Shown here one piece after another: positions 757-55,541 of a DNA stretch of 64,000 nucleotides. This DNA is from Patescibacteria group bacterium UBA2105 (lineage in GTDB: Bacteria; Patescibacteriota; Minisyncoccia; Phycocordibacterales; UBA2100): contig DCYR01000007.1 in NCBI GenBank assembly GCA_002331495.1, forward strand, positions 29,689-93,688, given 5' to 3'. The notes beneath the pieces were generated by a model. That model did no database searches and was not told where the DNA came from. It saw only the letters and a list, made by a program, of their open reading frames with translations. Each line of letters opens with the position of its first letter. Positions within the stretch are counted from its first letter, which is position 1. The translations under genes were made by a program, and so were the position numbers.

Positions 757-1995
757 TTAATCCAGAAGAAATTGCCCGTTGTCGTATACCACCCGAGTTT
801 TCCCATCCTTCAAATGTGCCGTCACTTTGCGGCGAGTTGTTGAGATTATGTCGGTGTGCACAGTGGAGTCGTTGTAGCCCAGTTTGTCTGCGAACTTCTT
901 GTTGCTAAGTTTCGTTATATCTCCTGTATAAGTATCGTGGTATGACATACCCAAGGCAATATGTGTATTTCCCTGTGGGCCACCCATATTCTCGTCATAG
1001 AGAGTCTCGGCCATTGGCTTGGTGATACGAGAGAATCGTTTGTCGGTGAGCGAGAACTCCCCCACCTTATCTGCATTTTCGGTTTTTATCATTTCCTTAA
1101 GAAGTTTTTCACCTTTTGTTGCCTTGCTCTTCACAACTTTTCCGTTCTTAAACCACAACTCGATTCCTTCAAGGACATTACCGTATCGGTACAGTGGTTG
1201 ATTGAAACGAATCCAACCTTCCGTTCCGCGCCAGTCAGGTGAGGTAAACACTTCAAAACTTGGGATATTTGCCCCGCGTCCGGAGAGCCACTTGCGCTTC
1301 TCACCAGGGGTAATCCAGAGGTCGACGTCAGGACCCTCAACGTGGAATTTCTCAGTTTTTTCGGTGACTTTCGATATCTTTTTACGGTGGTTCTCAAGGC
1401 CATCTGTGATCTCTTTCCACTTTTTGACAGGGTTTTTCTCGTCGAGGAAGCACGCCTTAATAATTTGGTTCCAGTACGCTTTCTCGCTCATGCCAACAGT
1501 AGCTGCCATCTGTGATGTTCCGTAGAGTGCGAGTGTCCAGGTGAACTTGCCCCGATTCTCCTTATCACGACGCCAATCCATGAACTGCTTCATAGCAAGG
1601 CCACGCCGCATTATTTTCTTGGGGTCGATACCCTTGAGCGCTTCCTTGTTGGTTTCAGCGATTAAGTAAATGGAATGGTCCATCGTATCGATAAGACCTT
1701 TCATATACTTGGTCGGAAAAAAGTCGATTTGATGACCATCGGCTTTAAGGTAGTAGTCACGAGATGGTGAGTACTTCTCGTCGTCGTCAGGGAGATAGTT
1801 GCTCATTACGTGAGCTCCCGCTTCAAGAATCTTACTTTGAACGGCTAAGAACAGAGGCTTGGTTACCTCCCCTCCAGTGAGGCGCACAACTTCGCCTTTC
1901 TTTACTCCCTTGCCGCCATTGAGGGCAAAGTTTACAAGAACATCCGCGTAGCGATCTAAGATTTTTTGTGGTGGTACGTAGGGTTGTTTGCTCAT
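757..1995 (-). CDS. M29-family aminopeptidase (AmpS/PepS-like); likely start at internal Met (MSKQPYVPPQKILDRYADVLVNF...)
   Basis: Length and N-terminal pattern (KILDRYADVLVNFALNGGKGVKKGE) typical of aminopeptidase T/S. The longest ORF (to 2082) would overlap the upstream aspS 3' end. Confidence 0.65.
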   Translation of the reverse strand: MSKQPYVPPQKILDRYADVLVNFALNGGKGVKKGEVVRLTGGEVTKPLFLAVQSKILEAGAHVMSNYLPDDDEKYSPSRDYYLKADGHQIDFFPTKYMKGLIDTMDHSIYLIAETNKEALKGIDPKKIMRRGLAMKQFMDWRRDKENRGKFTWTLALYGTSQMAATVGMSEKAYWNQIIKACFLDEKNPVKKWKEITDGLENHRKKISKVTEKTEKFHVEGPDVDLWITPGEKRKWLSGRGANIPSFEVFTSPDWRGTEGWIRFNQPLYRYGNVLEGIELWFKNGKVVKSKATKGEKLLKEMIKTENADKVGEFSLTDKRFSRITKPMAETLYDENMGGPQGNTHIALGMSYHDTYTGDITKLSNKKFADKLGYNDSTVHTDIISTTRRKVTAHLKDGKTRVVYDNGQFLLD

Positions 1996-2056
1996 GGTTT
2001 CTATCAGTAGTCGTGCGTTAGCGCGACCTCTTTTTATATCATTTAGTAAGTTATGC

Positions 2057-3388
2057 TTACTCTTCCGAGAGACGAGAGTCAATACGGTTCATGTCTCGCG
2101 GGAACGGAACCGCTTCTTTCACGTTCGCAATGTTAAGCACACGAGCCGTAAAGCGCTCAAGTCCGGTTGAGCACCCACCGTGCGGGGGCACACCATACTT
2201 GTGCATCTGTAAGTAGAAAGAAAATTTCTCCGGATCCATTCCGCGCTCCTTGATTGTTTCCACCATTTGGTCGTAGTCGTGAAAGCGCTGGCTGCCGCTG
2301 TTGATCTCAAGTCCTCGGAAAAGTAGATCAAAGCTGTATGAGCGCTCTGGGTTGTTCGGGTCAGGGTATGTGTAGAAGGCGCGTTTTGCTGTTGGAAACT
2401 CTGTAATGAACACGAAGTCACTTCCCTTCTCCTTCTTTGCCCACTCACAAATCTGTCGTTCATGTTCTGGCTCAAGATCTGGCTCACCTACCGCCTTGCC
2501 GCCGAACTCTTTCTCGATTATCTCCTGTGCCTCAAGAAGTGTGAGTACAGGAAACGCTTCGTTCGGAAGCAGTGGTGCTTCCGTGTCGAAGCGTGCAAAT
2601 ACGTCTGGGTGCTTCTCTACAACGGCTGCGCACACGTCACGAATTACTGCCTCGAGCATTTCCATAACATCGAGATGGTCTTCAATGAAGCCCATCTCAA
2701 AATCCATCTGGGTCACTTCTGAGAGGTGGCGTGTCGTTGCCGATTTTTCAGCGCGGAATATTTTCGCAATGGTAAATGCGCGTTCGTACACACCTGTCAT
2801 AATTTCCTTATACAGCTGTGGGCTTGTAGCGAGAAATGCGGTGCGGTCGTGAAAGTACTCTACTTTGAATACCTCGGCTCCTCCCTCGGCATCTCCACCT
2901 GTAAGTGCTGGTGCCTGGAATTCGGTGAACTCGCGAGTGATAAGTGCCCAACGATACGCCTGCACTATGGTTGCCGCGACGCTAAAAATATCACGCCCGC
3001 GCTGCGTTCGTAGGGTGAGTGGTCGATAGTCTAAGAGAGTATCTAGATTTAGCTCCGCGTCTAAATCGAACGGAAGCTCAGCTGCAGGAGCCAATACGGT
3101 AAGTTCTTCAATTACGAGCTCAATGTCGCCATTTTGCTCGTCTTTTTTCATATTGTCGGGACGCTCGTTCACTGTACCTTGTGCGCTTACTACCCACTGC
3201 TCGCGAAGTGGTTGGGCTGTCTCAAAAGCTTCCACACCACTTTTTACTACTGCCTGTGCTACGCCGCTGCGGTCGCGTAGCACCAGGAACATGAGCTTCC
3301 CGTGATCGCGGCGGACATCTACCCATCCGGCAATGTGCACTTTTTCGCCCTTCTTATCGCTAAGTTGTCCAATAGTCGTTCTCTCCAT
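2057..3388 (-). CDS. aspS: Class II aspartyl/asparaginyl-tRNA synthetase (archaeal-type AspRS or AsnRS, 443 aa)
   Basis: N-terminal OB anticodon-binding fold followed by class II motifs (FRAEKSATTRHLSE..., GGCSTGLERF). Asp versus Asn specificity cannot be decided by eye. Confidence 0.7.
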   Translation of the reverse strand: MERTTIGQLSDKKGEKVHIAGWVDVRRDHGKLMFLVLRDRSGVAQAVVKSGVEAFETAQPLREQWVVSAQGTVNERPDNMKKDEQNGDIELVIEELTVLAPAAELPFDLDAELNLDTLLDYRPLTLRTQRGRDIFSVAATIVQAYRWALITREFTEFQAPALTGGDAEGGAEVFKVEYFHDRTAFLATSPQLYKEIMTGVYERAFTIAKIFRAEKSATTRHLSEVTQMDFEMGFIEDHLDVMEMLEAVIRDVCAAVVEKHPDVFARFDTEAPLLPNEAFPVLTLLEAQEIIEKEFGGKAVGEPDLEPEHERQICEWAKKEKGSDFVFITEFPTAKRAFYTYPDPNNPERSYSFDLLFRGLEINSGSQRFHDYDQMVETIKERGMDPEKFSFYLQMHKYGVPPHGGCSTGLERFTARVLNIANVKEAVPFPRDMNRIDSRLSEE

Positions 3389-4395: not shown

Positions 4396-6039
4396 TTACT
4401 TGACCTTTGCGGGTTCATGCGCGAACCGCGAAACCAAGGGTAGCTCCACTATGAAGGTTGACCCACGACCAACTCCCTGTGATTCTGCCCAGATTTTACC
4501 GTTGTGAGCCTCAACCATTTGGCGGGCGACATATAAACCAAGGCCGGTGCCATTCACATTTACTCCTGATGCACCCTCAGCGCGAACAAATTTCTCAAAA
4601 AGTTTGGAGATCTCCTTCGGGTCGATACCTATGCCACTATCGGATACCACGATGCGTATTGTATTGCCCCCCTCCCCTGGTTCGATGTGTACTTTAACCC
4701 AACCATGCTCGGTGTACTTAATAGCGTTGTCTATCAGATTAAAGAAAATATGACGAATCTTTGCATAGTCAGCGTGCACTGTACACTTTTTTTTCAAATG
4801 ATTGGCAAATGAAAGTTTCAAATGTCGTTCTTTTGAAACAGGCTGGAGCTCTTGTACAACCTCGGACACAAGTTCATCGCATTCCAAGTCTTTCATGTCG
4901 TAATCCATACGGCCTTGTTCGATACGAGATACATCAAGAAAATCGTTGATAGTTTGCGCGAGCATACCACTTGAGGCAAAGATTTGTTTTAGAATGACCA
5001 TAGCTCGATCAGGTATGCGCCCGTACGAACCGTCGACAATCAGCGAGAGGTGTCCGCGAATACCCGCGAGAGGGCCGCGAAGTTGATGAGTCGCGATTGA
5101 TAGAAACTCCGATTTTTGCTGGTCTAATTCTCGAAGCTTTACATTTGCCTTTTGCAACTTGTCTGTAATTTCTTGGAGACTCTTTCTTGTGTGTACTTCG
5201 TTATAGACACTTTGCAGTAAAAGATAGCTTGCAATTGAAATTAGAACAAAAAAAGCAATCTGCACTACTAAATTCACAAAAGATGAGGAGGTGAAAATTT
5301 GTATAAAGACCCCTGTGACAATGAAAAGAACCAAAAGCTCGGTCGCAATTGTTTTTAATGTAAACAATCTGTACCTAATTATTGAATATCCAAGCAGCGG
5401 AGGAAACATAATAATGGCGAAATTTCCGTAAGGAAGTATGGGTATATCGAACCAAAGATAGAAATTAATAGCTCCTCCGCCAAAGCCCAGCAAAGTTCCT
5501 GCTAACATTGAAGTAAGCTGACCCCTTCGCATCTCAGCCTTGACCAAAAAAAGCCTATAGGCTATTCGGAAAAGCGCTAGCGACACTGGAAGGACGTACC
5601 CCAGTATTATATGTGTTAGATATAGTGGTCCAGCTGTTGGCCAAAACGGGAAGATGATTTTCTCGCTTATTGCCCCGATTAATAGACTTGGATAAAATAC
5701 AAGTATAGATATGAATCCGAGTATGACTCCGTACGTACCTCCCAAAACAATACTCCAAAAGAATCCTGCGGCTCGAGTTACGACTAAAACCCAGTGAGTA
5801 AAGAACATTACGCTTAACAAGGATCCAGCAGTAAGAATGGAAATCCATATATACGCTTGCTCAACATTCGTTGAATTGGTCAACCAGAACCAATAAGATA
5901 CTCCCCACACGCTTATTGCAAGCGACATCAAAAAATATAGTCGGTTGCTTAGTTCACTGGAATCCTTAAGTATGACAAGACCTCCAAAAATCAAGGACAC
6001 TACCCCGGCTGCTAAGGCTGAAAGAGCAAAAAGTTCCAT
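4396..6039 (-). CDS. Sensor histidine kinase with polytopic N-terminal membrane domain (HisKA + HATPase_c)
   Basis: About 9 hydrophobic helices, then the H-box (SIATHQLRGPL) and N/G boxes (NLIDNAIKYT, GTGLGL). No response regulator gene nearby. Confidence 0.8.
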   Translation of the reverse strand: MELFALSALAAGVVSLIFGGLVILKDSSELSNRLYFLMSLAISVWGVSYWFWLTNSTNVEQAYIWISILTAGSLLSVMFFTHWVLVVTRAAGFFWSIVLGGTYGVILGFISILVFYPSLLIGAISEKIIFPFWPTAGPLYLTHIILGYVLPVSLALFRIAYRLFLVKAEMRRGQLTSMLAGTLLGFGGGAINFYLWFDIPILPYGNFAIIMFPPLLGYSIIRYRLFTLKTIATELLVLFIVTGVFIQIFTSSSFVNLVVQIAFFVLISIASYLLLQSVYNEVHTRKSLQEITDKLQKANVKLRELDQQKSEFLSIATHQLRGPLAGIRGHLSLIVDGSYGRIPDRAMVILKQIFASSGMLAQTINDFLDVSRIEQGRMDYDMKDLECDELVSEVVQELQPVSKERHLKLSFANHLKKKCTVHADYAKIRHIFFNLIDNAIKYTEHGWVKVHIEPGEGGNTIRIVVSDSGIGIDPKEISKLFEKFVRAEGASGVNVNGTGLGLYVARQMVEAHNGKIWAESQGVGRGSTFIVELPLVSRFAHEPAKVK

Positions 6040-30498: not shown

Positions 30499-31536
30499 TT
30501 AAACAAGCTCGAACCGACCGTCCTCGAGTCGTGTAAATGTATCCGAATCCTGTAAGTTTACCGCAATGGTATTGTCTTTAACGTATCGCTCGCGTTTCAC
30601 TCGGTCGATAATCTCTTTCTTGGTGAGCGGGCCAAGCTCTTTGAGTAGCTCACGTATGACATCTTTCACCACACCCTTTGAGTATCCCCACTCAGCTAGT
30701 GCATAGAGACCACGTCCGACAAGCACAAATCGAGGGTCTTTGATGAGTTCATTGTGAGTAGTTGCTACGTGTGCCTTACGGCCGAAAAGCTCTTCGATTT
30801 GTTGTGCTACTTCTGAGAAGTGCATCGGAGAACCGTGTCGCTTAAGTGTAAGATATGCGAAATCACGCATACCTTTTACACGCACTGAAGGTGACGTAGT
30901 AAGACCCCACTCACCCAGAGGGTTGCGCGCAATTTTTTTGGATAAGGAGAGCCAGCGAAGCAAGGTTTCTGCATTATCTTGTGCAATCTCTGCCTTCGCG
31001 AGCTCTTCTTTATAGCGCGCAACGATCTCTTCTTCTGGAAGTACAATGGAGTCGTCGAGGGACCCAAACACACCGGTAAGAGCGTCACGTATACCCTTGG
31101 CATACGCCTCGTCGATGTACCAGTGACTTACAAAGTCTCCTCCCTCTTTTACGCGGTAAAATTGTTCCCCAACAGTACAAAGGAACAGCAGCGCGTTTTC
31201 ATCAGCTTTGGTTTTCGCAATTGACTTAATAAGTTCGTGTTGCGATGTTACGCCCCCAAATTGCTCAAAGACACCCCTCAGCTCGTCAAATACTGGCTTA
31301 AGATCCTTGTAGCGTTCGGATTTTTGAATGCTCTTAATAGCGTGGTTTTCAATCTGTCGAACACGTTCGCGGGTGATGCTGTATGATTGACCAACAGACT
31401 CAAGTGTCTCGATTGTATTCGAGTCGATAAGTCCGTAGCGACGCGTGAGAACGTCGCGTGCCCGTTCATTTTCAACAACGCTCACAAGTTGAGAAGCGAT
31501 GTGCTTAGGTTTGAATGTGACTTTCATGGTTGTCAT
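30499..31536 (-). CDS. DNA-binding protein with N-terminal sigma-70 region-4-like HTH and C-terminal HARE-HTH-like motif
   Basis: TLESVGQSYSITRERVRQIENHAIKSI (region 4.2-like); C-terminus HFSEV...DPRFVLVGRGLYALAEWGY (HARE-HTH-like). Confidence 0.45.
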   Translation of the reverse strand: MTTMKVTFKPKHIASQLVSVVENERARDVLTRRYGLIDSNTIETLESVGQSYSITRERVRQIENHAIKSIQKSERYKDLKPVFDELRGVFEQFGGVTSQHELIKSIAKTKADENALLFLCTVGEQFYRVKEGGDFVSHWYIDEAYAKGIRDALTGVFGSLDDSIVLPEEEIVARYKEELAKAEIAQDNAETLLRWLSLSKKIARNPLGEWGLTTSPSVRVKGMRDFAYLTLKRHGSPMHFSEVAQQIEELFGRKAHVATTHNELIKDPRFVLVGRGLYALAEWGYSKGVVKDVIRELLKELGPLTKKEIIDRVKRERYVKDNTIAVNLQDSDTFTRLEDGRFELV

Positions 31537-31670: not shown

Positions 31671-34600
31671 CTATAGCACTAGGTTTATGAGTCTATTTGG
31701 CACAAATATTACCTTTTTCGGCTCCCCCTCAAGCCACCTTGAGAGTTTGTCTTCTCCCTGAACAACCTCCAAGACTGTCGCCTCGTCGGAATCGTTGGCT
31801 ACCACGACGCTGCCGCGCACTTTTCCGTTTACTTGTACCGCGATAGTGACCTCTTCATCCTTTGCGAGAGATTCGTCAAATTTTGGCCACGGGTGTGTGT
31901 GGACTGAACCTTCGCCCCCTCCGGCCTCCCAAAGTTCCTCAGCTATATGTGGTGCGAAAGGTGCCAAGATGCGGACGAATGTGGCGTACTGTTCTTTGGT
32001 GATTGAGCTCTTTTCTACTTCGTTCACAAACGACATCATTGCGGCTATTGCCGTGTTGAACTTGAGCTCTTCAATGTCGCCTCCAACCTTTCGTATCAAT
32101 TTGTGGAGACTCCGCTCTGCATCTGGACTCTTTTCGTCCACAGTATTCCCCTGGAGTCGCCACACTCGTTCAAGAAAACGAACAACGCCCACAATCCCAT
32201 TCTCATTCCAAAGGATTTCGTCTGCTAACGGTGCTGCAAACATCATATACATACGCACAGAGTCTGCACCGAAGCGCTCTACCATGTCGTCGGGGTTCAC
32301 TATGTTTCCTTTCGATTTGCTCATCTTCACACCTTCGGCATCAAGTACCATTCCCTGGTGGCGCATCTTCAAAAATGGCTCATCAAAGTCCAGAAGACCA
32401 ATCTTTTGCATTGCTTTGGTGAAGAAGCGCGCGTACATCAGGTGCAAATACGTGTGCTCTGCCCCGCCCACGTAGAGGTCGACTGGAAGCCAGTGCTTGA
32501 GCCTGCTCTCGCGGCAGAATTCTTCGTCGTTGTGTGGGTCTGGGTAGCGAAGGTAGTACCAAGAAGAGCAAACAAACGTGTCCATAGTGTCTACTTCCGG
32601 AGTCCAGCCTTCACCGAATATCTTCTCAGTACGCTCTTTGAGCTCTTTAGATTGCGCAAGCGGCGCCTCACCTGTCGGCATGAAATCGACATCTTCCGGG
32701 AGTAGCCACGGCAGATGCTCATCCGGTACCACGTGGGGGTTCCCCTCAGGGTCGTACACAATCGGAATTGGTGCTCCCCAGTAGCGCTGTCTAGAAATAG
32801 ACCAGTCACGAAGTTTGTAGGTGGTCTTCATCTCCCCACCTACGGCCTTGGTAATCATTTCTTTCGCCTCGAGATTATCAAGGTCATTAAATTTATCCGA
32901 GTTAACGAGGTTGCCATCACTCACGTATGGACTATCTCCTTTCTCAAATACCTCAACTGCGTGGTGGTGTGTTGGTGCAGTTAAAAAGCTTTTCAACTCA
33001 TCTAAGGTTAGCCACTCAACGCTGTGCCGCGCTTCTTCCTCGTCGGAGATTTGCTCTTGTGCGTCGTCCTGCAGTTCTATGTAGAACATGTGTCCGTGTA
33101 CAGTCCGATTCTCTTTCTTGGGGACGTGGTAGAACATGCCATCGACGACTCCCATGTCGCGGGTAATCTTTGCGTTCATGAACCCGGTCTCTTCGCGAAC
33201 TTCTTTCAAAACCGTTTGCTCTGGCGTCTCGTCATCTTCGATTCCGCCAGTCAAAAGTGTTCCCCACTCTACCTCCTTCCACTTAAGTGCTATGTACTTA
33301 TCTTCGCTCCAGTGTTTTACCAGTGCTATCACTCCGTTGCGAAACACCATCGGCTCCCCCTCTCGGAAGGCGCCTGGCTCAGTTGTTTGAATTAAACGAG
33401 GAGCGATTACCTGTCGTATCTCAATACCAAATTGTTTTGCGAAGTCCCAATCGCGCTCATCGTGGGCAGGTACGGCCATAATTGCACCGGTTCCATAGTG
33501 TGCGAGTACGTAGTCGGCAATAAAGATCGGGACCTCCTCGTTGTTTGCTGGGTTGATAGCCTTTACCCCCTTAAGCTCGACACCGGTTTTCTCTTTCGTC
33601 TCTACGGTGCGCTCAAGGTCGGTTTTCTTTGCAGCTGCAGCTACGTATTTGTCGACATCCGCTTTGTTCTCAATTTTCTCGGAAAGTTTTCCTACGAGTT
33701 CATGTTCTGGCGAGAGCACCATGTATGTTGCTCCGAAGAGTGTGTCGGGTCGAGTAGTAAATACTCTTACCTTCGGAACTATTGGTGCATACCAACTGTT
33801 GTTAGCGAGCCATGCCCACGCCGATTCATCGGTTGGCTCGTCATCGTTAAATTTGTTGCCAAGCTCAACGATGGCTGCGTCGGTTTCTTCGCTAAGAACA
33901 AGGCGCTCGACTGAGCTGTCCTTATGTTTAAAAATAAATACCACTTCGTCGTCGGTGAGGTATTCATTCCAAAAACCGGGCTCCATTTTCTCCACGATTA
34001 ATTCCTCAAATGCTTTGGCCGATGATTTCGGAAAACGCACACAGAGGAATCCATTTTTCGTGGCCTCAACTATCTCACCACCAACGGCATTGATGTCTTT
34101 CTCGGAGATATTTTTCTCGCCCATGATGAAGCTGCGCGCCTCATTCGGATCATCGTTTACAACTCTGGGAACCACGAACTCAATTTCTGCTCCCTCGCTT
34201 TTACCGATCCAGTTTATTTGATTCTTGCGTGTGTGTTCTGGCCAATCAATCTTTTCGTGCCCGTCGATAAGGTCTTGCGCAAAGTCAGTGATTTTGAAAA
34301 ACCAACTCGGTATTGGTTTTTGCATTACGTCTTTCTTACATCGCTCGCATGCGCCGCCTTCGACCTGCTCGTTTGCGAGTACTGTTTTGCAGGAATCACA
34401 CCAGTTTACGGTATCGGTCTTTTTGTATACGAGATCGTTCTTGAAAAATTGAATGAAGAGCCATTGTGTCCACTTGTAGTAGTTGGGCTCTGACGTCGTG
34501 ACCATTTCGTCGTAATCGTAGTCGATACCGAGCGATTTGAGCTGTCGCGTAAAGTTTTCAGAGTTTGTTTTGGTTGTCTCTTTTGGATGTACGCCCGTTT

Positions 34601-34877
34601 TTACCGCGTAGTTTTCTGCGGGAAGACCAAACGAGTCGAACCCCGTTGGATGCAATACGTTAAAGCCGGTCGCCTTCTTATATCGGGAGAAAATATCGTT
34701 GGCCGTATAGGCTTCGGTGTGCCCCATGTGAAGTCCGTCACCAGACGGGTACGGATACATGTCGAGGAGATAGAATTTTGGTTTCGCGGTGTCGTCTTTG
34801 TCTATTTTGTTGGCACCGGTCTCGTCCCAGGTCTTTTGCCACTTCTTTTCGACTTTCTGGTGGTCGTATTTCTGCAT
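31671..34877 (-). CDS. leuS: Leucyl-tRNA synthetase carrying an inserted Nudix hydrolase domain and a second ~125-aa insertion
   Basis: HMGH, TTRPDT, GTGAIMAVPAHDERD (CP1 editing site intact), KLRDWSISRQRYWGAPIP and KMSKS motifs. Start taken at MQKYDHQKVEKKWQKTW. A Nudix box G-X5-E-X7-KE-V-X-EE-X-G-F is encoded at about 33180-33248. Confidence 0.9.
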   Translation of the reverse strand: MQKYDHQKVEKKWQKTWDETGANKIDKDDTAKPKFYLLDMYPYPSGDGLHMGHTEAYTANDIFSRYKKATGFNVLHPTGFDSFGLPAENYAVKTGVHPKETTKTNSENFTRQLKSLGIDYDYDEMVTTSEPNYYKWTQWLFIQFFKNDLVYKKTDTVNWCDSCKTVLANEQVEGGACERCKKDVMQKPIPSWFFKITDFAQDLIDGHEKIDWPEHTRKNQINWIGKSEGAEIEFVVPRVVNDDPNEARSFIMGEKNISEKDINAVGGEIVEATKNGFLCVRFPKSSAKAFEELIVEKMEPGFWNEYLTDDEVVFIFKHKDSSVERLVLSEETDAAIVELGNKFNDDEPTDESAWAWLANNSWYAPIVPKVRVFTTRPDTLFGATYMVLSPEHELVGKLSEKIENKADVDKYVAAAAKKTDLERTVETKEKTGVELKGVKAINPANNEEVPIFIADYVLAHYGTGAIMAVPAHDERDWDFAKQFGIEIRQVIAPRLIQTTEPGAFREGEPMVFRNGVIALVKHWSEDKYIALKWKEVEWGTLLTGGIEDDETPEQTVLKEVREETGFMNAKITRDMGVVDGMFYHVPKKENRTVHGHMFYIELQDDAQEQISDEEEARHSVEWLTLDELKSFLTAPTHHHAVEVFEKGDSPYVSDGNLVNSDKFNDLDNLEAKEMITKAVGGEMKTTYKLRDWSISRQRYWGAPIPIVYDPEGNPHVVPDEHLPWLLPEDVDFMPTGEAPLAQSKELKERTEKIFGEGWTPEVDTMDTFVCSSWYYLRYPDPHNDEEFCRESRLKHWLPVDLYVGGAEHTYLHLMYARFFTKAMQKIGLLDFDEPFLKMRHQGMVLDAEGVKMSKSKGNIVNPDDMVERFGADSVRMYMMFAAPLADEILWNENGIVGVVRFLERVWRLQGNTVDEKSPDAERSLHKLIRKVGGDIEELKFNTAIAAMMSFVNEVEKSSITKEQYATFVRILAPFAPHIAEELWEAGGGEGSVHTHPWPKFDESLAKDEEVTIAVQVNGKVRGSVVVANDSDEATVLEVVQGEDKLSRWLEGEPKKVIFVPNRLINLVL

Positions 34878-35052
34878 CTGGCAATAGTAGCACTGGTTCT
34901 GAGGAACATACAAGAAAGAAGTGTTGCTTGAGTACGGGTATGATGTTACAAAGTACGCATGCAATTTGCACAGCACAACACAGATTTGCTGATGCTAGGG
35001 GCGACCAAGGTCGGTTGTGTTTTGCGTACCTAGAACATAGATACATAAAACA

Positions 35053-35090
35053 GAGTCGACCTTCCCGGTCGGCTCGTTTTGCTCTTTTTA
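35053..35090 (+). terminator. Intrinsic-terminator-like hairpin (9-bp stem incl. one G.U, 5-nt loop) followed by GTTTTGCTCTTTTT
   Basis: Seen directly: gagtcgacc-ttccc-ggtcggctc then a T-run. Confidence 0.35.
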
Positions 35091-35108
35091 ACCCAGCGGG
35101 AGAGGATC

Positions 35109-35243
35109 CATGGGCAAGAAAAGAAAGCCCAAGTGCAACGGCAATCAACATGCGGCGTATCTTCGAGCTGCGGCGAAGCGACGAGCATTTCGGGCTCAAG
35201 AAGCCAAGAAGGCGCGTAAGAAAAGACAGGGAAAATGAGATAG
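35109..35243 (+). CDS. Candidate 44-aa highly basic small protein (MGKKRKPKCNGNQHAAYLRAAAKRRAFRAQEAKKARKKKTGKMR)
   Basis: GGAGG 4 nt upstream of the ATG, which is rare in this window. Preceded by a hairpin+T-tract and followed by a strong hairpin+T-tract on the plus strand. Below the ORF-track cut-off. Confidence 0.25.
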
Positions 35244-35290
35244 TTCTTCATGCCTGAACCACCGTTTTTTCAGAATCGGTGATTCGGAGC

Positions 35291-35334
35291 CTGCAACGAT
35301 GCAATGAAAGGGGTCGCGAAGATAATTCTTCGCG
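35291..35334 (+). terminator. Strong intrinsic terminator (12-bp stem, 4-nt loop, then TGATCTTTTGGCTTTT)
   Basis: gggtcgcgaaga-taat-tcttcgcggccc + T-rich tail. Confidence 0.5.
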
Positions 35335-35352
35335 GCCCTGATCTTTTGGCTT

Positions 35353-36324
35353 TTAGAAGTTGAGAGCCCGAATAGGCACGGGTTCCTTGAATGGAACGAT
35401 GCGTTCTGGATCGACCTCTCGCTCAAAGCACGTTCGTCCTTCGCCGTGAGGCCAGTCTTGCGTGGTCTGCTGCAAGTCGCGCACACGCCAATCGCTTAGG
35501 TCTGCCTTGTCGATGTCGAATGCTGGTAGCGGCAAGCTGAATGTTGCACAAAGCTCAAAAGCAAGGTTGCCAGTCTTTGTGTACTCATAGTCGTCTCCTG
35601 TCTCTGGGTCGACTTGAATTTGAGCACCCACGAGTGGGTTTTTAAGTTCGTCGAGAGACTCAGGAAGTCGTTCGGTCGTTTGATAGTAGTTAGTTACTTG
35701 GTATTGGATGCCTTGCAGGTCATTAATACGTTGTTGATCGTAGCGAAGTAGGCGCTGCGTATAAGGAGAGCCCATAATGAAGAATCCGGCCATGATTGAT
35801 ACAAGAACAACCAACGACACAGCAGCCGCTATTGTTTTTGAAAGACTTTCCCTATTTTCCCACTTGCCCTTGATGTCTGAGATGTAGTAATAGAACACTC
35901 CCGCCGCGACAACAAGTACCGTTATAACCTTAAGTAGGAATGCAGCGGTAATCTCCTCGCCGCTGAGAAATGTGTTAATAAGCACAATTAGGTCAGCAAG
36001 TATTGCAATTCCGGCGACAAACACCGCTAGGAATACAAGCCAACGACGAACCCATAGTTCCTTCTTAAGCGGGTCTTTCCGGATATCCTGATTGAGCATG
36101 CGCGTAAGCGCAATGTATACAGGGAAGATTACGATAAGGCTCGCAATGGCAAATTGAATACCTCCCGAGTATGGGTCGTAGCCAATTATGGCTGTGTCAC
36201 CCACTAAACGCTCAATGTACTCGAATGTCAGTGCAATAAAGCTTCCCACTGAAAAGTAGAGTGCAACCATAGCTCCGAGCCACATAAAGAAGTCTTTTGG
36301 TGTTACTTTGAGTTTTTCAGACAT
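35353..36324 (-). CDS. Hypothetical polytopic membrane protein with C-terminal soluble domain
   Basis: About 6 TM helices then a domain of about 130 aa; no family recognised. Confidence 0.4.
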   Translation of the reverse strand: MSEKLKVTPKDFFMWLGAMVALYFSVGSFIALTFEYIERLVGDTAIIGYDPYSGGIQFAIASLIVIFPVYIALTRMLNQDIRKDPLKKELWVRRWLVFLAVFVAGIAILADLIVLINTFLSGEEITAAFLLKVITVLVVAAGVFYYYISDIKGKWENRESLSKTIAAAVSLVVLVSIMAGFFIMGSPYTQRLLRYDQQRINDLQGIQYQVTNYYQTTERLPESLDELKNPLVGAQIQVDPETGDDYEYTKTGNLAFELCATFSLPLPAFDIDKADLSDWRVRDLQQTTQDWPHGEGRTCFEREVDPERIVPFKEPVPIRALNF

Positions 36325-36382
36325 AAAATACTATTGTGAGAGCTAATGCTCAAATTGTACACTTTTTTCTCCGAAGCGCGAC

Positions 36383-36847
36383 TCAATCTCCACCTGCTCC
36401 GTACGGCGAGTAACCGGCGAAGATCGGTGGTGCTCCAATAGCACGCGCAGCTATATCCATGTTCTCACGGGCTTCATCGCTCCAATAGAAATTAGTGTTT
36501 AGCACCGCACGTACCTCCGTGTGCGAAAATCCGCATTCGTTCAGAAATGCAAGAAGCGGCTGATGCCACCCCTTCTTCTTGTCACGTTGCACTTCCAAAA
36601 TGTAGTCGCGCAGATGTGTCACAAGCATGGTCTCGCCTTTTCTCGAACCAGAGAGGAGTTCAAAGCCAGCGAAGTCTCTTCTCAAAAGCGAAAGCAAACT
36701 TGCAAGAACGTCACCAGCGCCCATTTTTCTGATTCCCTCAATGTTTCCCTCGTGTGCCAGTTGAAGGAGCTCAAATTTGGAGTCTTCTTCTCTTGATTCC
36801 AGTTGAGCATCGGTCTTCTGGTATGAAAATCCTTCTTTTTCTCTCAT
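36383..36847 (-). CDS. Hypothetical protein
   Basis: 154-aa ORF immediately upstream of ychF in the same orientation. Confidence 0.35.
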   Translation of the reverse strand: MREKEGFSYQKTDAQLESREEDSKFELLQLAHEGNIEGIRKMGAGDVLASLLSLLRRDFAGFELLSGSRKGETMLVTHLRDYILEVQRDKKKGWHQPLLAFLNECGFSHTEVRAVLNTNFYWSDEARENMDIAARAIGAPPIFAGYSPYGAGGD

Positions 36848-55216: not shown

Positions 55217-55244
55217 CAATAAGGCCCGCTTTAGCGGGCCTTAT
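55217..55244. terminator. Perfect 12-bp stem / 4-nt loop hairpin (AATAAGGCCCGC-TTTA-GCGGGCCTTATT), probable bidirectional terminator
   Basis: Seen directly; T/A-rich flanks on both sides. Confidence 0.5.
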
Positions 55245-55249
55245 TATGA

Positions 55250-55321
55250 TTTACTCCGTTTCTTCGTCCTCTTCCTCACCTGCGCTTGCCTGGCATGCTT
55301 CGCATGATCCATCTTCACACA
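55250..55321 (-). CDS. Candidate 23-aa Cys-rich acidic micro-protein (MCEDGSCEACQASAGEEEDEETE)
   Basis: Manual translation. The stop codon lies 5 nt before a perfect 12-bp hairpin terminator. No homolog known to me; could be fortuitous. Confidence 0.2.
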
Positions 55322-55541
55322 TAGTTGAATTTATTAATTGCTAAGCACCTCTTGGTGCCCCTTAATCATGCCTTTTGGCTAGACCTTTGCAATCCCCATG
55401 TGAAAAAGTGAGCTTGCATATATTTTTAAGTTTGTTCTAGCTATGGCGTTCCCAACGTCAAGGACCTTTCACTACGTCATGCGCTCCCCTTAAATTCCAA
55501 CCACACGTCATTCGCTGCTTGTTCAGGAAATGCTCAATGTA

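Follow-up and report, generated by a model that had tools for sequence, protein, structure and literature searches.

A conserved small basic protein gene beside leuS in a Patescibacteria genome and its putative leucine-codon attenuator

What lies on the plus strand between two minus-strand genes, leuS and a gene for a DUF5671 membrane protein, in a 64,000-nucleotide (nt) stretch of contig DCYR01000007.1 (positions 29,689 to 93,688; below, the window) from Patescibacteria group bacterium UBA2105? A first-pass annotation of the letters, made without database searches, had pointed in this spacer to a short basic open reading frame (ORF) that is preceded by a Shine-Dalgarno (SD) sequence and by two hairpins with T runs and is followed by a terminator, and it had offered three explanations: a small ribosomal-type or nucleic-acid-binding protein with an attenuator-like leader, a small RNA (sRNA) antisense to the 5' region of leuS, or the leuS leader seen from the opposite strand. 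The comparative analysis described here finds the frame conserved in six lineages and preceded by the full anatomy of an attenuator, as the first of these explanations would have it, while the ribosomal type is unsupported by family and structure searches. On balance, we lean towards a reading in which the spacer holds a plus-strand transcription unit of its own that points away from leuS, and ribosome-mediated transcription attenuation would turn on the small protein when Leu-tRNA is scarce.

A small basic protein gene opposite leuS

Relatives were reached through the faster-evolving DUF5671 neighbour, along a ladder of 66–86% identity, and their contigs were then searched by tblastn. Besides the window, the small peptide was found in five further lineages (Table 1), each time between the same two genes, opposite in strand to leuS and oriented as in the window; across the six lineages the DUF5671 proteins are 70–100% identical to that of the window. 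The frame, its start, the SD sequence and the downstream terminator are kept in all six. In the five-sequence alignment, from which L176 was left out, 15 residues are invariant (M1, K3, G11, Q13, H14, L18, A20, K23, R24, R25, F27, A29, A32, A35 and R36). Nei-Gojobori counts over five lineages give synonymous differences near saturation (pS, the proportion of synonymous sites that differ, 0.51–0.97) against a nonsynonymous proportion, pN, of 0.07–0.37; omega (dN/dS) is 0.08 for the closest pair, L163 and L164, and in most pairs third codon positions show about twice the differences of first and second positions. Only the frame of the small gene, among the six possible ones, is open in all five lineages tested. 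The frame thus stands up to the tblastn and substitution check that the first-pass annotation had suggested, and the gene is, judged by its pattern of codon change, under strong purifying selection.

Table 1. The six lineages that carry the small gene: peptide length, identity of the DUF5671 neighbour to that of the window, putative leader peptide (each followed by a stop codon) and computed energies (kcal/mol) of the two leader conformations. In the joint row, the leader peptide and the energies are those of L166.
Lineage	Small peptide (aa)	DUF5671 identity	Leader peptide	Antiterminator	Terminator
Window	42		MQFAQHNTDLLMLGATKVGCVLRT	-23.6	-23.7
L163	48	85%	MHHAQYNANPLILGTTKVGCVLRT	-21.3	-24.6
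L164	49	86%		-19.5	-20.7
L166/L167/L174	42	75%	MHHASHNAILLLLGTTKVGCVLRT	-22.2	-23.2
L176	45	75%	MQYAAHNTTLLLIGEVKVGCVLRT	-27.6	-24.0
L172	44	70%	MQPIVCSIIGLLILLSTKKVGCVVRI	-26.5	-19.9

The length of the ORF is in itself unremarkable, five ORFs of at least 40 amino acids (aa) overlapping the spacer, and its significance lies in its conservation in relatives. Since ORFs of such length are common there, since gene callers place no call over it in the window's own contigs and since a look-up of the exact 42-aa sequence found it not on record, it could be taken for an untranslated sequence, either a chance ORF or a stretch of a non-coding sRNA; however, the near-saturated synonymous change beside low amino-acid change contradicts such a reading, as do the unique openness of this one frame and the conserved SD and ATG, and we give it next to no credence. 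That the 42-codon ORF is a true protein-coding gene seems to us very probable.

Several details of the gene differ from the first description. It has 42 codons and a stop, not 44 codons, and it ends in ...KKARKKRQGK before the stop codon instead of in KKKTGKMR; Lys and Arg make up 17 of the 42 residues, where 18 of 44 had been counted, and there is one Leu. The SD sequence is present, although it reads GGGAGAGG, that is GAGG-N4-ATG, with no contiguous GGAGG; in the six lineages it takes the form GGGAG, GGGAGG, GGAGGGAG or AGGAGG, about 2–10 nt before the ATG. The strong hairpin and T run downstream of the gene had also been recognised correctly, but the stem has 13 base pairs (bp) and lies at 35310–35339, and not 12 bp at 35291–35334. 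It is probably bidirectional, since the DUF5671 gene converges on it and has its stop 13 nt away, at 35353. Its hairpin is kept in L163, L164 and L166 with compensatory changes in the spacer alignment, and L172 and L176 have strong terminators of their own at the equivalent position.

AlphaFold2 models the 42-aa protein as a single helix (residues 11–40, mean predicted local distance difference test score, pLDDT, 84). Neither Pfam nor NCBIfam (E up to 10) gives a match for any of the five small-protein homologues, and PHROGs and PADLOC, searched with the peptide and its homologues, give nothing credible, the sole match being one in PADLOC with E = 0.053 for one member. A profile search of the PDB has best E values of 0.6–1.1, to unrelated proteins, and the viral contigs searched hold no homologue. 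The 42–49-residue, Lys/Arg-rich helical micro-proteins are a new, narrowly distributed family. Two familiar kinds of small protein were considered and set aside. A known small ribosomal or ribosome-hibernation protein would be expected among the Pfam and NCBIfam families or the PDB chains, where no family and no credible chain was found. The toxin of a type I toxin-antitoxin system would be a hydrophobic or membrane peptide, and the peptide here is highly basic and hydrophilic with one predicted soluble helix; no antisense frame or element is conserved, an antisense promoter not having been looked for.

In metagenome annotation the small gene is mostly missed or masked by wrong calls. The public calls over it are antisense ORFs in L163 (1464..1712, plus strand, 82 aa) and in L166 (5070..5582, plus strand, 170 aa), and in L172 (1991..2311, minus strand) an ORF of 106 aa, extended upstream in frame so that it takes in the leader. 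A word-indexed protein search with the single small peptide returned no match, and one with the five-sequence profile returned only P0121, which is also the sole called copy in a full HMMER scan of 1.84 billion representative proteins; it is a correct, independent gene call of the small protein by the Joint Genome Institute (JGI).

The distribution of the module, as far as the leuS locus is concerned, is patchy. It adjoins leuS in all six lineages that carry it. L165, L168/L169 and L175, where the spacers measure 85–152 nt, do not have it here, and neither do L170/L171 and L083, where unrelated sequence takes its place. In close relatives with a spacer of 85–89 nt, the whole module is gone and leuS is kept. 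Scans of GTDB genomes and of metagenomes seeded with the LeuS N-terminus had nearest matches of 60% and 78% identity, both without the module. The absence of the gene from the leuS locus of several close relatives speaks against its coding for a core ribosomal protein.

Predicted promoter, putative leader peptide and leader RNA

The plus-strand promoter predicted upstream of the small gene (Table 2) has the geometry TTGC(T/A/G)N-16/17 nt-TAnAAn-6/7 nt-ATG in five of the six lineages, L164 deviating, and all lineages share an ATGCA motif with a TAnAAn box and upstream TG 6–7 nt before it. A consensus promoter scanner does not call this promoter, because it demands a T at position 6 of the -10 box. 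The conserved ATG at 34959 sits six nt after the -10 box, and the transcription start site (TSS) is predicted at or next to it, which would make the plus-strand mRNA leaderless.

The -10-N6-ATG layout matches that of leuS (TACTAT-N6-ATG) and of other SD-less genes of this genome. An SD-like motif (GGAG, GAGG or AGGA in SD position) precedes none of the 17 called neighbouring genes, a figure that rests on gene starts mapped from L001 and L002, a liberal window-wide count being uninformative owing to chance internal matches; the rarity of SD sequences elsewhere, remarked on in the first-pass annotation, is thereby borne out. Most of these 17 genes have a TAnnnT-like box 5–10 nt before the ATG, which indicates that the genome relies largely on leaderless or very short-leader mRNAs, a property that matters for gene calling in this lineage. 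Elsewhere in the window lies an acidic ORF of 23 codons with Cys (MCEDGSCEACQASAGEEEDEETE), which has a -10-like box immediately ahead of its ATG and a strong bidirectional terminator of 10 bp directly after it; it may be another unannotated leaderless micro-gene.

The putative leader-peptide ORF that begins at ATG 34959 has no SD sequence, contains a Leu-rich run and ends at the apex of a central hairpin. From its ATG to region 2 of the RNA the distance is 48, 48, 48, 48 and 54 nt in five of the six lineages, so that the 6-nt indel is in frame and the leader frame is kept. Its stop stands at the same position of the hairpin in five of six (TAG in four, TAA in L176), and again in five of six there are 2–4 Leu within codons 10–15, ending 2–3 codons before region 1 and flanked by Ile or Met. 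The Leu codons themselves differ (TTG, CTG, CTA, CTC and CTT), the strings in individual lineages being TTG CTG..CTA, CTA..CTA, CTG CTG CTG CTC and CTT CTA CTT, and the codon for Gly14 likewise changes among GGG, GGA and GGC. Over leader codons 2–16, pS (0.41–0.85) is greater than pN (0.20–0.56) in every pair.

The best-conserved part of the spacer is a 75–90-nt element just 5' of the SD sequence, with a column identity of 79–82%, above that of the ORF. A covariance model of this element finds one copy per locus, always beside the small gene, with scores of 98–109 bits and, for L176, which was outside the training set, of 65 bits; it finds no second copy in the window. On the plus strand the element folds at -47 kcal/mol (z = -2.96, with no shuffle equal to it), and on the minus strand at -38.6 kcal/mol (z = -2.0). 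The plus-strand structure keeps several G.U pairs, at positions where the opposite strand would have A.C mismatches, and only on the plus strand does a U run follow. Based on the stronger fold, the conserved G.U pairs and the strand-specific U run, the element acts as a plus-strand RNA and is not the leuS leader seen from the opposite strand; short-spacer relatives without the module keep leuS.

The same observations bear on a reading in which the element belongs to the minus strand or to the DNA itself, serving either as the leader of leuS or as a palindromic operator of the divergent promoters, its plus-strand terminator features being incidental. The element is an imperfect inverted repeat 125–200 nt upstream of leuS, and -35-like and -10-like hexamers can be read inside its arms. 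Nevertheless, the minus fold is 8 kcal/mol weaker, leuS has its own -35 and -10 boxes at its ATG, which are kept in relatives without the module, and loop lengths differ by 8 nt, so that the spacing of any promoter reaching across the loop would change. The Rfam scan of both strands, which had also been suggested at the outset, yielded neither a T-box nor any other family (E up to 10 over positions 34000–36500; none at the gathering score in the whole window). We regard this reading as very improbable. Two narrower candidates were rejected as well. A promoter within the hairpin (TTGTGT/TTGCGT ... TAGATA) would have its spacing shifted by 7–8 nt between lineages by the loop indel, and the resulting transcript would start with its own terminator. 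A T-box, the usual regulator of leuS in Firmicutes and some other phyla, has no covariance match in Rfam, and the element is on the strand opposite leuS. An antisense sRNA directed at the 5' region of leuS is not supported: the leuS gene begins at 34877, a -10 box of its own lies six nt before that, and the transcript predicted from about 34959 does not overlap it.

Within the element, two pairings that are mutually exclusive around region 3 can be recognised, and a hairpin-and-T-run scan confirmed both of the upstream hairpins of the first-pass annotation, a weak one of 6 pairs and one of 9 pairs. The central hairpin, which is common to both conformations, has 13 pairs, with 93.6% of the cells paired over the six lineages; its loop ranges from 3 to 11 nt between conserved arms, and one G.U pair kept in five lineages is G-C in L176. 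Pairing of regions 3 and 4 gives a terminator stem of 9 bp, 6 of them G-C, with the T tail GTTTTGCTCT; 94.4% of its cells are paired, and compensatory changes occur at two positions (A-U/G.U/G-C and U.G/U-A/C-G). Pairing of the almost invariant region 2 with region 3 gives instead an antiterminator helix (93.9% paired) in which changes of region 3 are absorbed by wobble pairs and which stacks on the central hairpin. When the sequence 5' of region 2 is masked in the computation, the two conformations have nearly equal energies in all six lineages (Table 1), and with a ribosome placed at the leader stop codon only the 3:4 terminator can form. The weak hairpin of regions 1 and 2 and the U-rich GUUGUGUUUUG after it could make RNA polymerase pause and so keep it in step with the ribosome; in the free fold of L176, region 2 pairs with a stretch further 5' that extends into the Leu codons.

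The hairpin-and-T-run scan finds 7 terminator-like sites in 1.4 kb, against 1.7 +/- 1.4 in shuffles, and a stricter script finds about 8 perfect-stem terminator-like hairpins in the 64-kb window, 2 of them inside the spacer. The combination of promoter, leader and small gene occurs once in the window.

Table 2. Coordinates of the features discussed, as positions in the window.
Feature	Position	Strand	Remarks
Sigma-70 region 4 and HARE-HTH protein gene	30499..31536	minus	345 aa; 3' of leuS
leuS	31671..34877	minus	1068 aa; TIGR00396 match, E = 1e-274
DUF5671-leuS spacer	34878-35352		475 nt
leuS promoter	34913..34884	minus	-35 TTGTAT 34913..34908; -10 TACTAT 34889..34884; TACTAT-N6-ATG
Predicted promoter	34924..34952	plus	-35 TTGCTT 34924-34929; 17-nt spacer; extended -10 TGtTACAAA 34944-34952
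Putative leader-peptide ORF	34959..35033	plus	24 codons and stop; no SD
Leu-rich run	34986-34997	plus	codons 10-13 of the leader ORF
Leader element	35001-35075	plus	just 5' of the SD
Weak 1:2 hairpin and T run	35001-35018	plus	6 pairs, then U-rich
Region 1	35002-35006	plus	CGACC
Region 2	35007-35017	plus	AAGGUCGGUUG
Central hairpin	35018..35052	plus	5' arm 35018-35032; loop 35033-35037; 3' arm 35038-35052
Leader stop codon	35031-35033	plus	TAG
Attenuator terminator	35053..35089	plus	region 3 35053-35063; loop; region 4 35067-35075; U run GUUUUGCUCUUUUU 35076-35089
Shine-Dalgarno sequence	35098-35105	plus	GGGAGAGG; ends 4 nt before ATG
Small basic protein gene	35110..35238	plus	42 codons and stop; MGKKRKPKCNGNQHAAYLRAAAKRRAFRAQEAKKARKKRQGK
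Terminator of the small-gene unit	35310..35349		13-bp hairpin 35310-35339 and T-rich tail
DUF5671 membrane protein gene	35353..36324	minus	5' of leuS on the same strand
Terminator after the 23-codon ORF	55220-55243		10 bp, bidirectional
23-codon ORF	55251..55322	minus	MCEDGSCEACQASAGEEEDEETE

A putative leucine attenuator weighed against its alternatives

The arrangement suggests a course of events in which transcription would begin with the A of ATG 34959 or a neighbouring nucleotide, giving a leaderless mRNA on which a 70S ribosome would translate the 24-codon leader peptide, with the Leu codons immediately ahead of region 1. With ample charged tRNA-Leu, the ribosome would proceed to the stop codon at the tip of the central hairpin and would cover region 2 together with the 5' arm of that hairpin; with region 2 covered, regions 3 and 4 would pair, and the 9-bp hairpin and its U run would end transcription short of the small gene. 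If charged tRNA-Leu runs low, the ribosome would stall on the Leu run and cover region 1 only, leaving region 2 free for the 2:3 pairing, stacked on the central hairpin, and thereby blocking the terminator. RNA polymerase would then read through, and the SD-led small gene would be expressed as far as its own terminator. Conservation of the coding frame, of the leader ORF and of the alternative pairings is what the comparison shows; the start site, the stalling, the readthrough and the specificity for Leu are inferences. We think it somewhat more probable than not that the leader is a ribosome-dependent attenuator; whether its signal is Leu-tRNA specifically is, in our estimate, an evenly balanced matter.

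A number of observations weigh against leucine-controlled attenuation. With region 1 masked, the equilibrium fold favours the terminator in four of the six lineages, by 0.1–3.3 kcal/mol, so that the switch would have to be kinetic, as the trp attenuator switch is. Covariation is weak, 80–168 of 500 shuffles reaching the observed measures, since the six sequences are few and rather similar. In L164 the leader ORF is frame-shifted, has 30 codons and contains an Ile/Phe run instead of a Leu run, and the -35 box is poor; the small gene of this lineage is intact. Elsewhere the Leu runs are short (2–4 Leu), with Met or Ile interrupting them. Both the promoter and the leaderless start are predicted from the letters, and RNA pairing alone accounts for part of the conservation in the 3' half of the leader ORF. 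Finally, the regulated gene is not one for leucine biosynthesis or charging, and leuS, encoded on the opposite strand, does not belong to the unit; the physiological sense of leucine control is therefore conjecture.

One alternative is a structured 5' leader that does not sense amino acids, for example a partial constitutive terminator or a stabilising or processing element such as a long stem of the RNase III type; the 24-codon ORF would then either code for a micro-protein in its own right or go untranslated. The free RNA folds as one imperfect hairpin of about 30 bp followed by a U run, the statistical support of the switch by covariation is weak, and L164 keeps the small gene despite a different leader frame without a Leu run. 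Such a leader, however, leaves unexplained why the frame, length and stop of the leader ORF are conserved in five of six lineages, why the Leu run is kept through synonymous changes and the -10-N6-ATG layout with it, and why all six lineages have near-isoenergetic, exclusive pairings of region 3. We regard it as unlikely, though worth keeping in view.

Autoregulation by the protein itself offers another account, in which the basic helical peptide would bind its own leader hairpin and set termination or translation. A Lys/Arg-rich single helix has the composition typical of RNA-binding peptides, and arginine-rich motifs bind RNA stem-loops; the leader sequence, besides, is conserved beyond the needs of pairing, more strongly than the ORF. 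Against this, the protein has no homology to known RNA-binding or antiterminator families, the surplus conservation of the leader is already covered by the double constraint of coding and pairing, and the conserved leader ORF is left unaccounted for, which makes autoregulation improbable in our view.

Locus, known systems and meaning

Contigs identical to the window are present in Tara Oceans and Logan assemblies, Tara Oceans ERR599159 being among the marine samples with this genome, and the homologues of the DUF5671 neighbour carry the source labels Parcubacteria or Kaiserbacteria; the window genome is marine and Parcubacteria-like, within the Candidate Phyla Radiation (CPR)/Patescibacteria. 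The spacer has 475 nt and not the 376 nt first given, because leuS starts at ATG 34877 (MQKYDHQK...), as in public gene calls and in homologues, and not at GTG 34976. On the 3' side of leuS, the gene for a protein with sigma-70 region 4 and HARE-HTH domains is kept in relatives. LeuS itself has a NUDIX hydrolase domain inserted at about residues 534–638 (PF00293, E = 1.4e-12). The insertion is present in L163, L165, L166, L172 (with a faint HAD match besides) and L175, absent in L164, L168, L170 and L083, and uncorrelated with the presence of the small-gene module; a literature search turned up nothing on it. The spacer of L170, whose LeuS is without the insertion, holds a separate 73-aa ORF (4786..5007, plus strand) in which the sequence ...GGLFEVGDATPLDILKRELKEEYK resembles a NUDIX box and which may be a NUDIX gene standing on its own, or the remnant of one. 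In L083 a small ORF was tried as a homologue of the small gene and rejected as unrelated to the window spacer; it is hydrophobic, lies in the same slot and orientation (1946..2314, minus strand; 84–122 aa by start choice), has the SD sequence AAAGGAG and a bidirectional terminator after it, and adjoins a LeuS with a 78% identical N-terminus. The occurrence of an unrelated ORF in the same slot makes the DUF5671-leuS spacer seem a variable site for small divergent genes.

Among known systems, the arrangement in the window is closest to the classical model of leader-peptide attenuation (PMC4007540). It is like the trpL, leuL and pheM (of pheST) attenuators of E. coli in its predicted short leader ORF, in which codons for a single amino acid are clustered, in its four RNA regions with exclusive 2:3 and 3:4 pairings and a 3:4 hairpin followed by a U run, and in a stop codon that places the ribosome over region 2, with a possible 1:2 pause hairpin. 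Unlike these, its leader ORF is without an SD sequence and apparently leaderless, it has an extra conserved hairpin between regions 2 and 3, its host is of the CPR/Patescibacteria type, and its target is a 42-aa basic protein and not a biosynthetic or charging gene. Enterobacterial amino-acid operon leaders are curated in Rfam. A literature search turned up no report of leader-peptide attenuation in the CPR.

In Deinococcus deserti, leaderless leader peptides have been predicted, with TSS data, before aminoacyl-tRNA synthetase and amino-acid biosynthesis genes (PMC4007540). The two cases share a TSS at the AUG of a peptide rich in one amino acid, here as a prediction, an SD-led downstream gene and a genome dominated by leaderless mRNAs. 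They differ in that the D. deserti leaders regulate the synthetase or the pathway itself, whereas here leuS is a divergent neighbour and the target is a novel small protein; and the D. deserti cases rest on TSS data (PMC4007540), the start here being predicted from the sequence.

The small protein resembles the basic ribosome-associated proteins RMF, Sra/bS22-type, bL34 and bL36 and arginine-rich RNA-binding peptides of the lambda N type in its size (about 40–55 aa), its wealth of Lys and Arg and its predicted helix; it differs from them in that its sequence has no credible match among the entries of Pfam, NCBIfam or the PDB. RMF is induced under starvation, and a starvation induction of the small protein would resemble that of RMF. 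From the composition, the single helix and the single Leu codon we conjecture a nucleic-acid-binding effector, acting on the ribosome, tRNA or RNA, that would be made in leucine shortage.

If the attenuation explanation holds, as we are slightly inclined to believe, the locus joins a known kind of regulation, the leader-peptide attenuator, here in a CPR host, to a new family of small proteins. What is unusual about it is this host, together with a novel 42-aa basic target that has a single Leu codon and a leuS gene that is divergent and has its own promoter. A further step, which we offer tentatively and think rather less probable, is that the locus is a minimal starvation-response module of an amino-acid-auxotrophic CPR bacterium, in which a leaderless, Leu-codon-sensing attenuator beside leuS induces a new helical family that acts in trans on the translation apparatus; the protein might then be a tRNA- or ribosome-binding cofactor that helps LeuS to capture tRNA-Leu, or a hibernation-type factor. 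Were this true, it would be the first leader-peptide attenuator described in the CPR and a new class of attenuator target.

CPR/Patescibacteria have tiny genomes and are unable to make amino acids, and to our knowledge almost none of their gene regulation has been characterised. The locus is a concrete case of hidden small-protein genes in uncultivated bacteria, since gene callers miss the gene or put spurious antisense ORFs in its place and a single called copy stands among 1.84 billion proteins. An attenuator that can be read from the sequence would show that CPR bacteria sense tRNA charging by classical coupled transcription and translation, on a leaderless mRNA, and the attenuator and its small gene, with all parts of the unit within about 430 nt, would give a handle on how these bacteria respond when an amino acid runs out.

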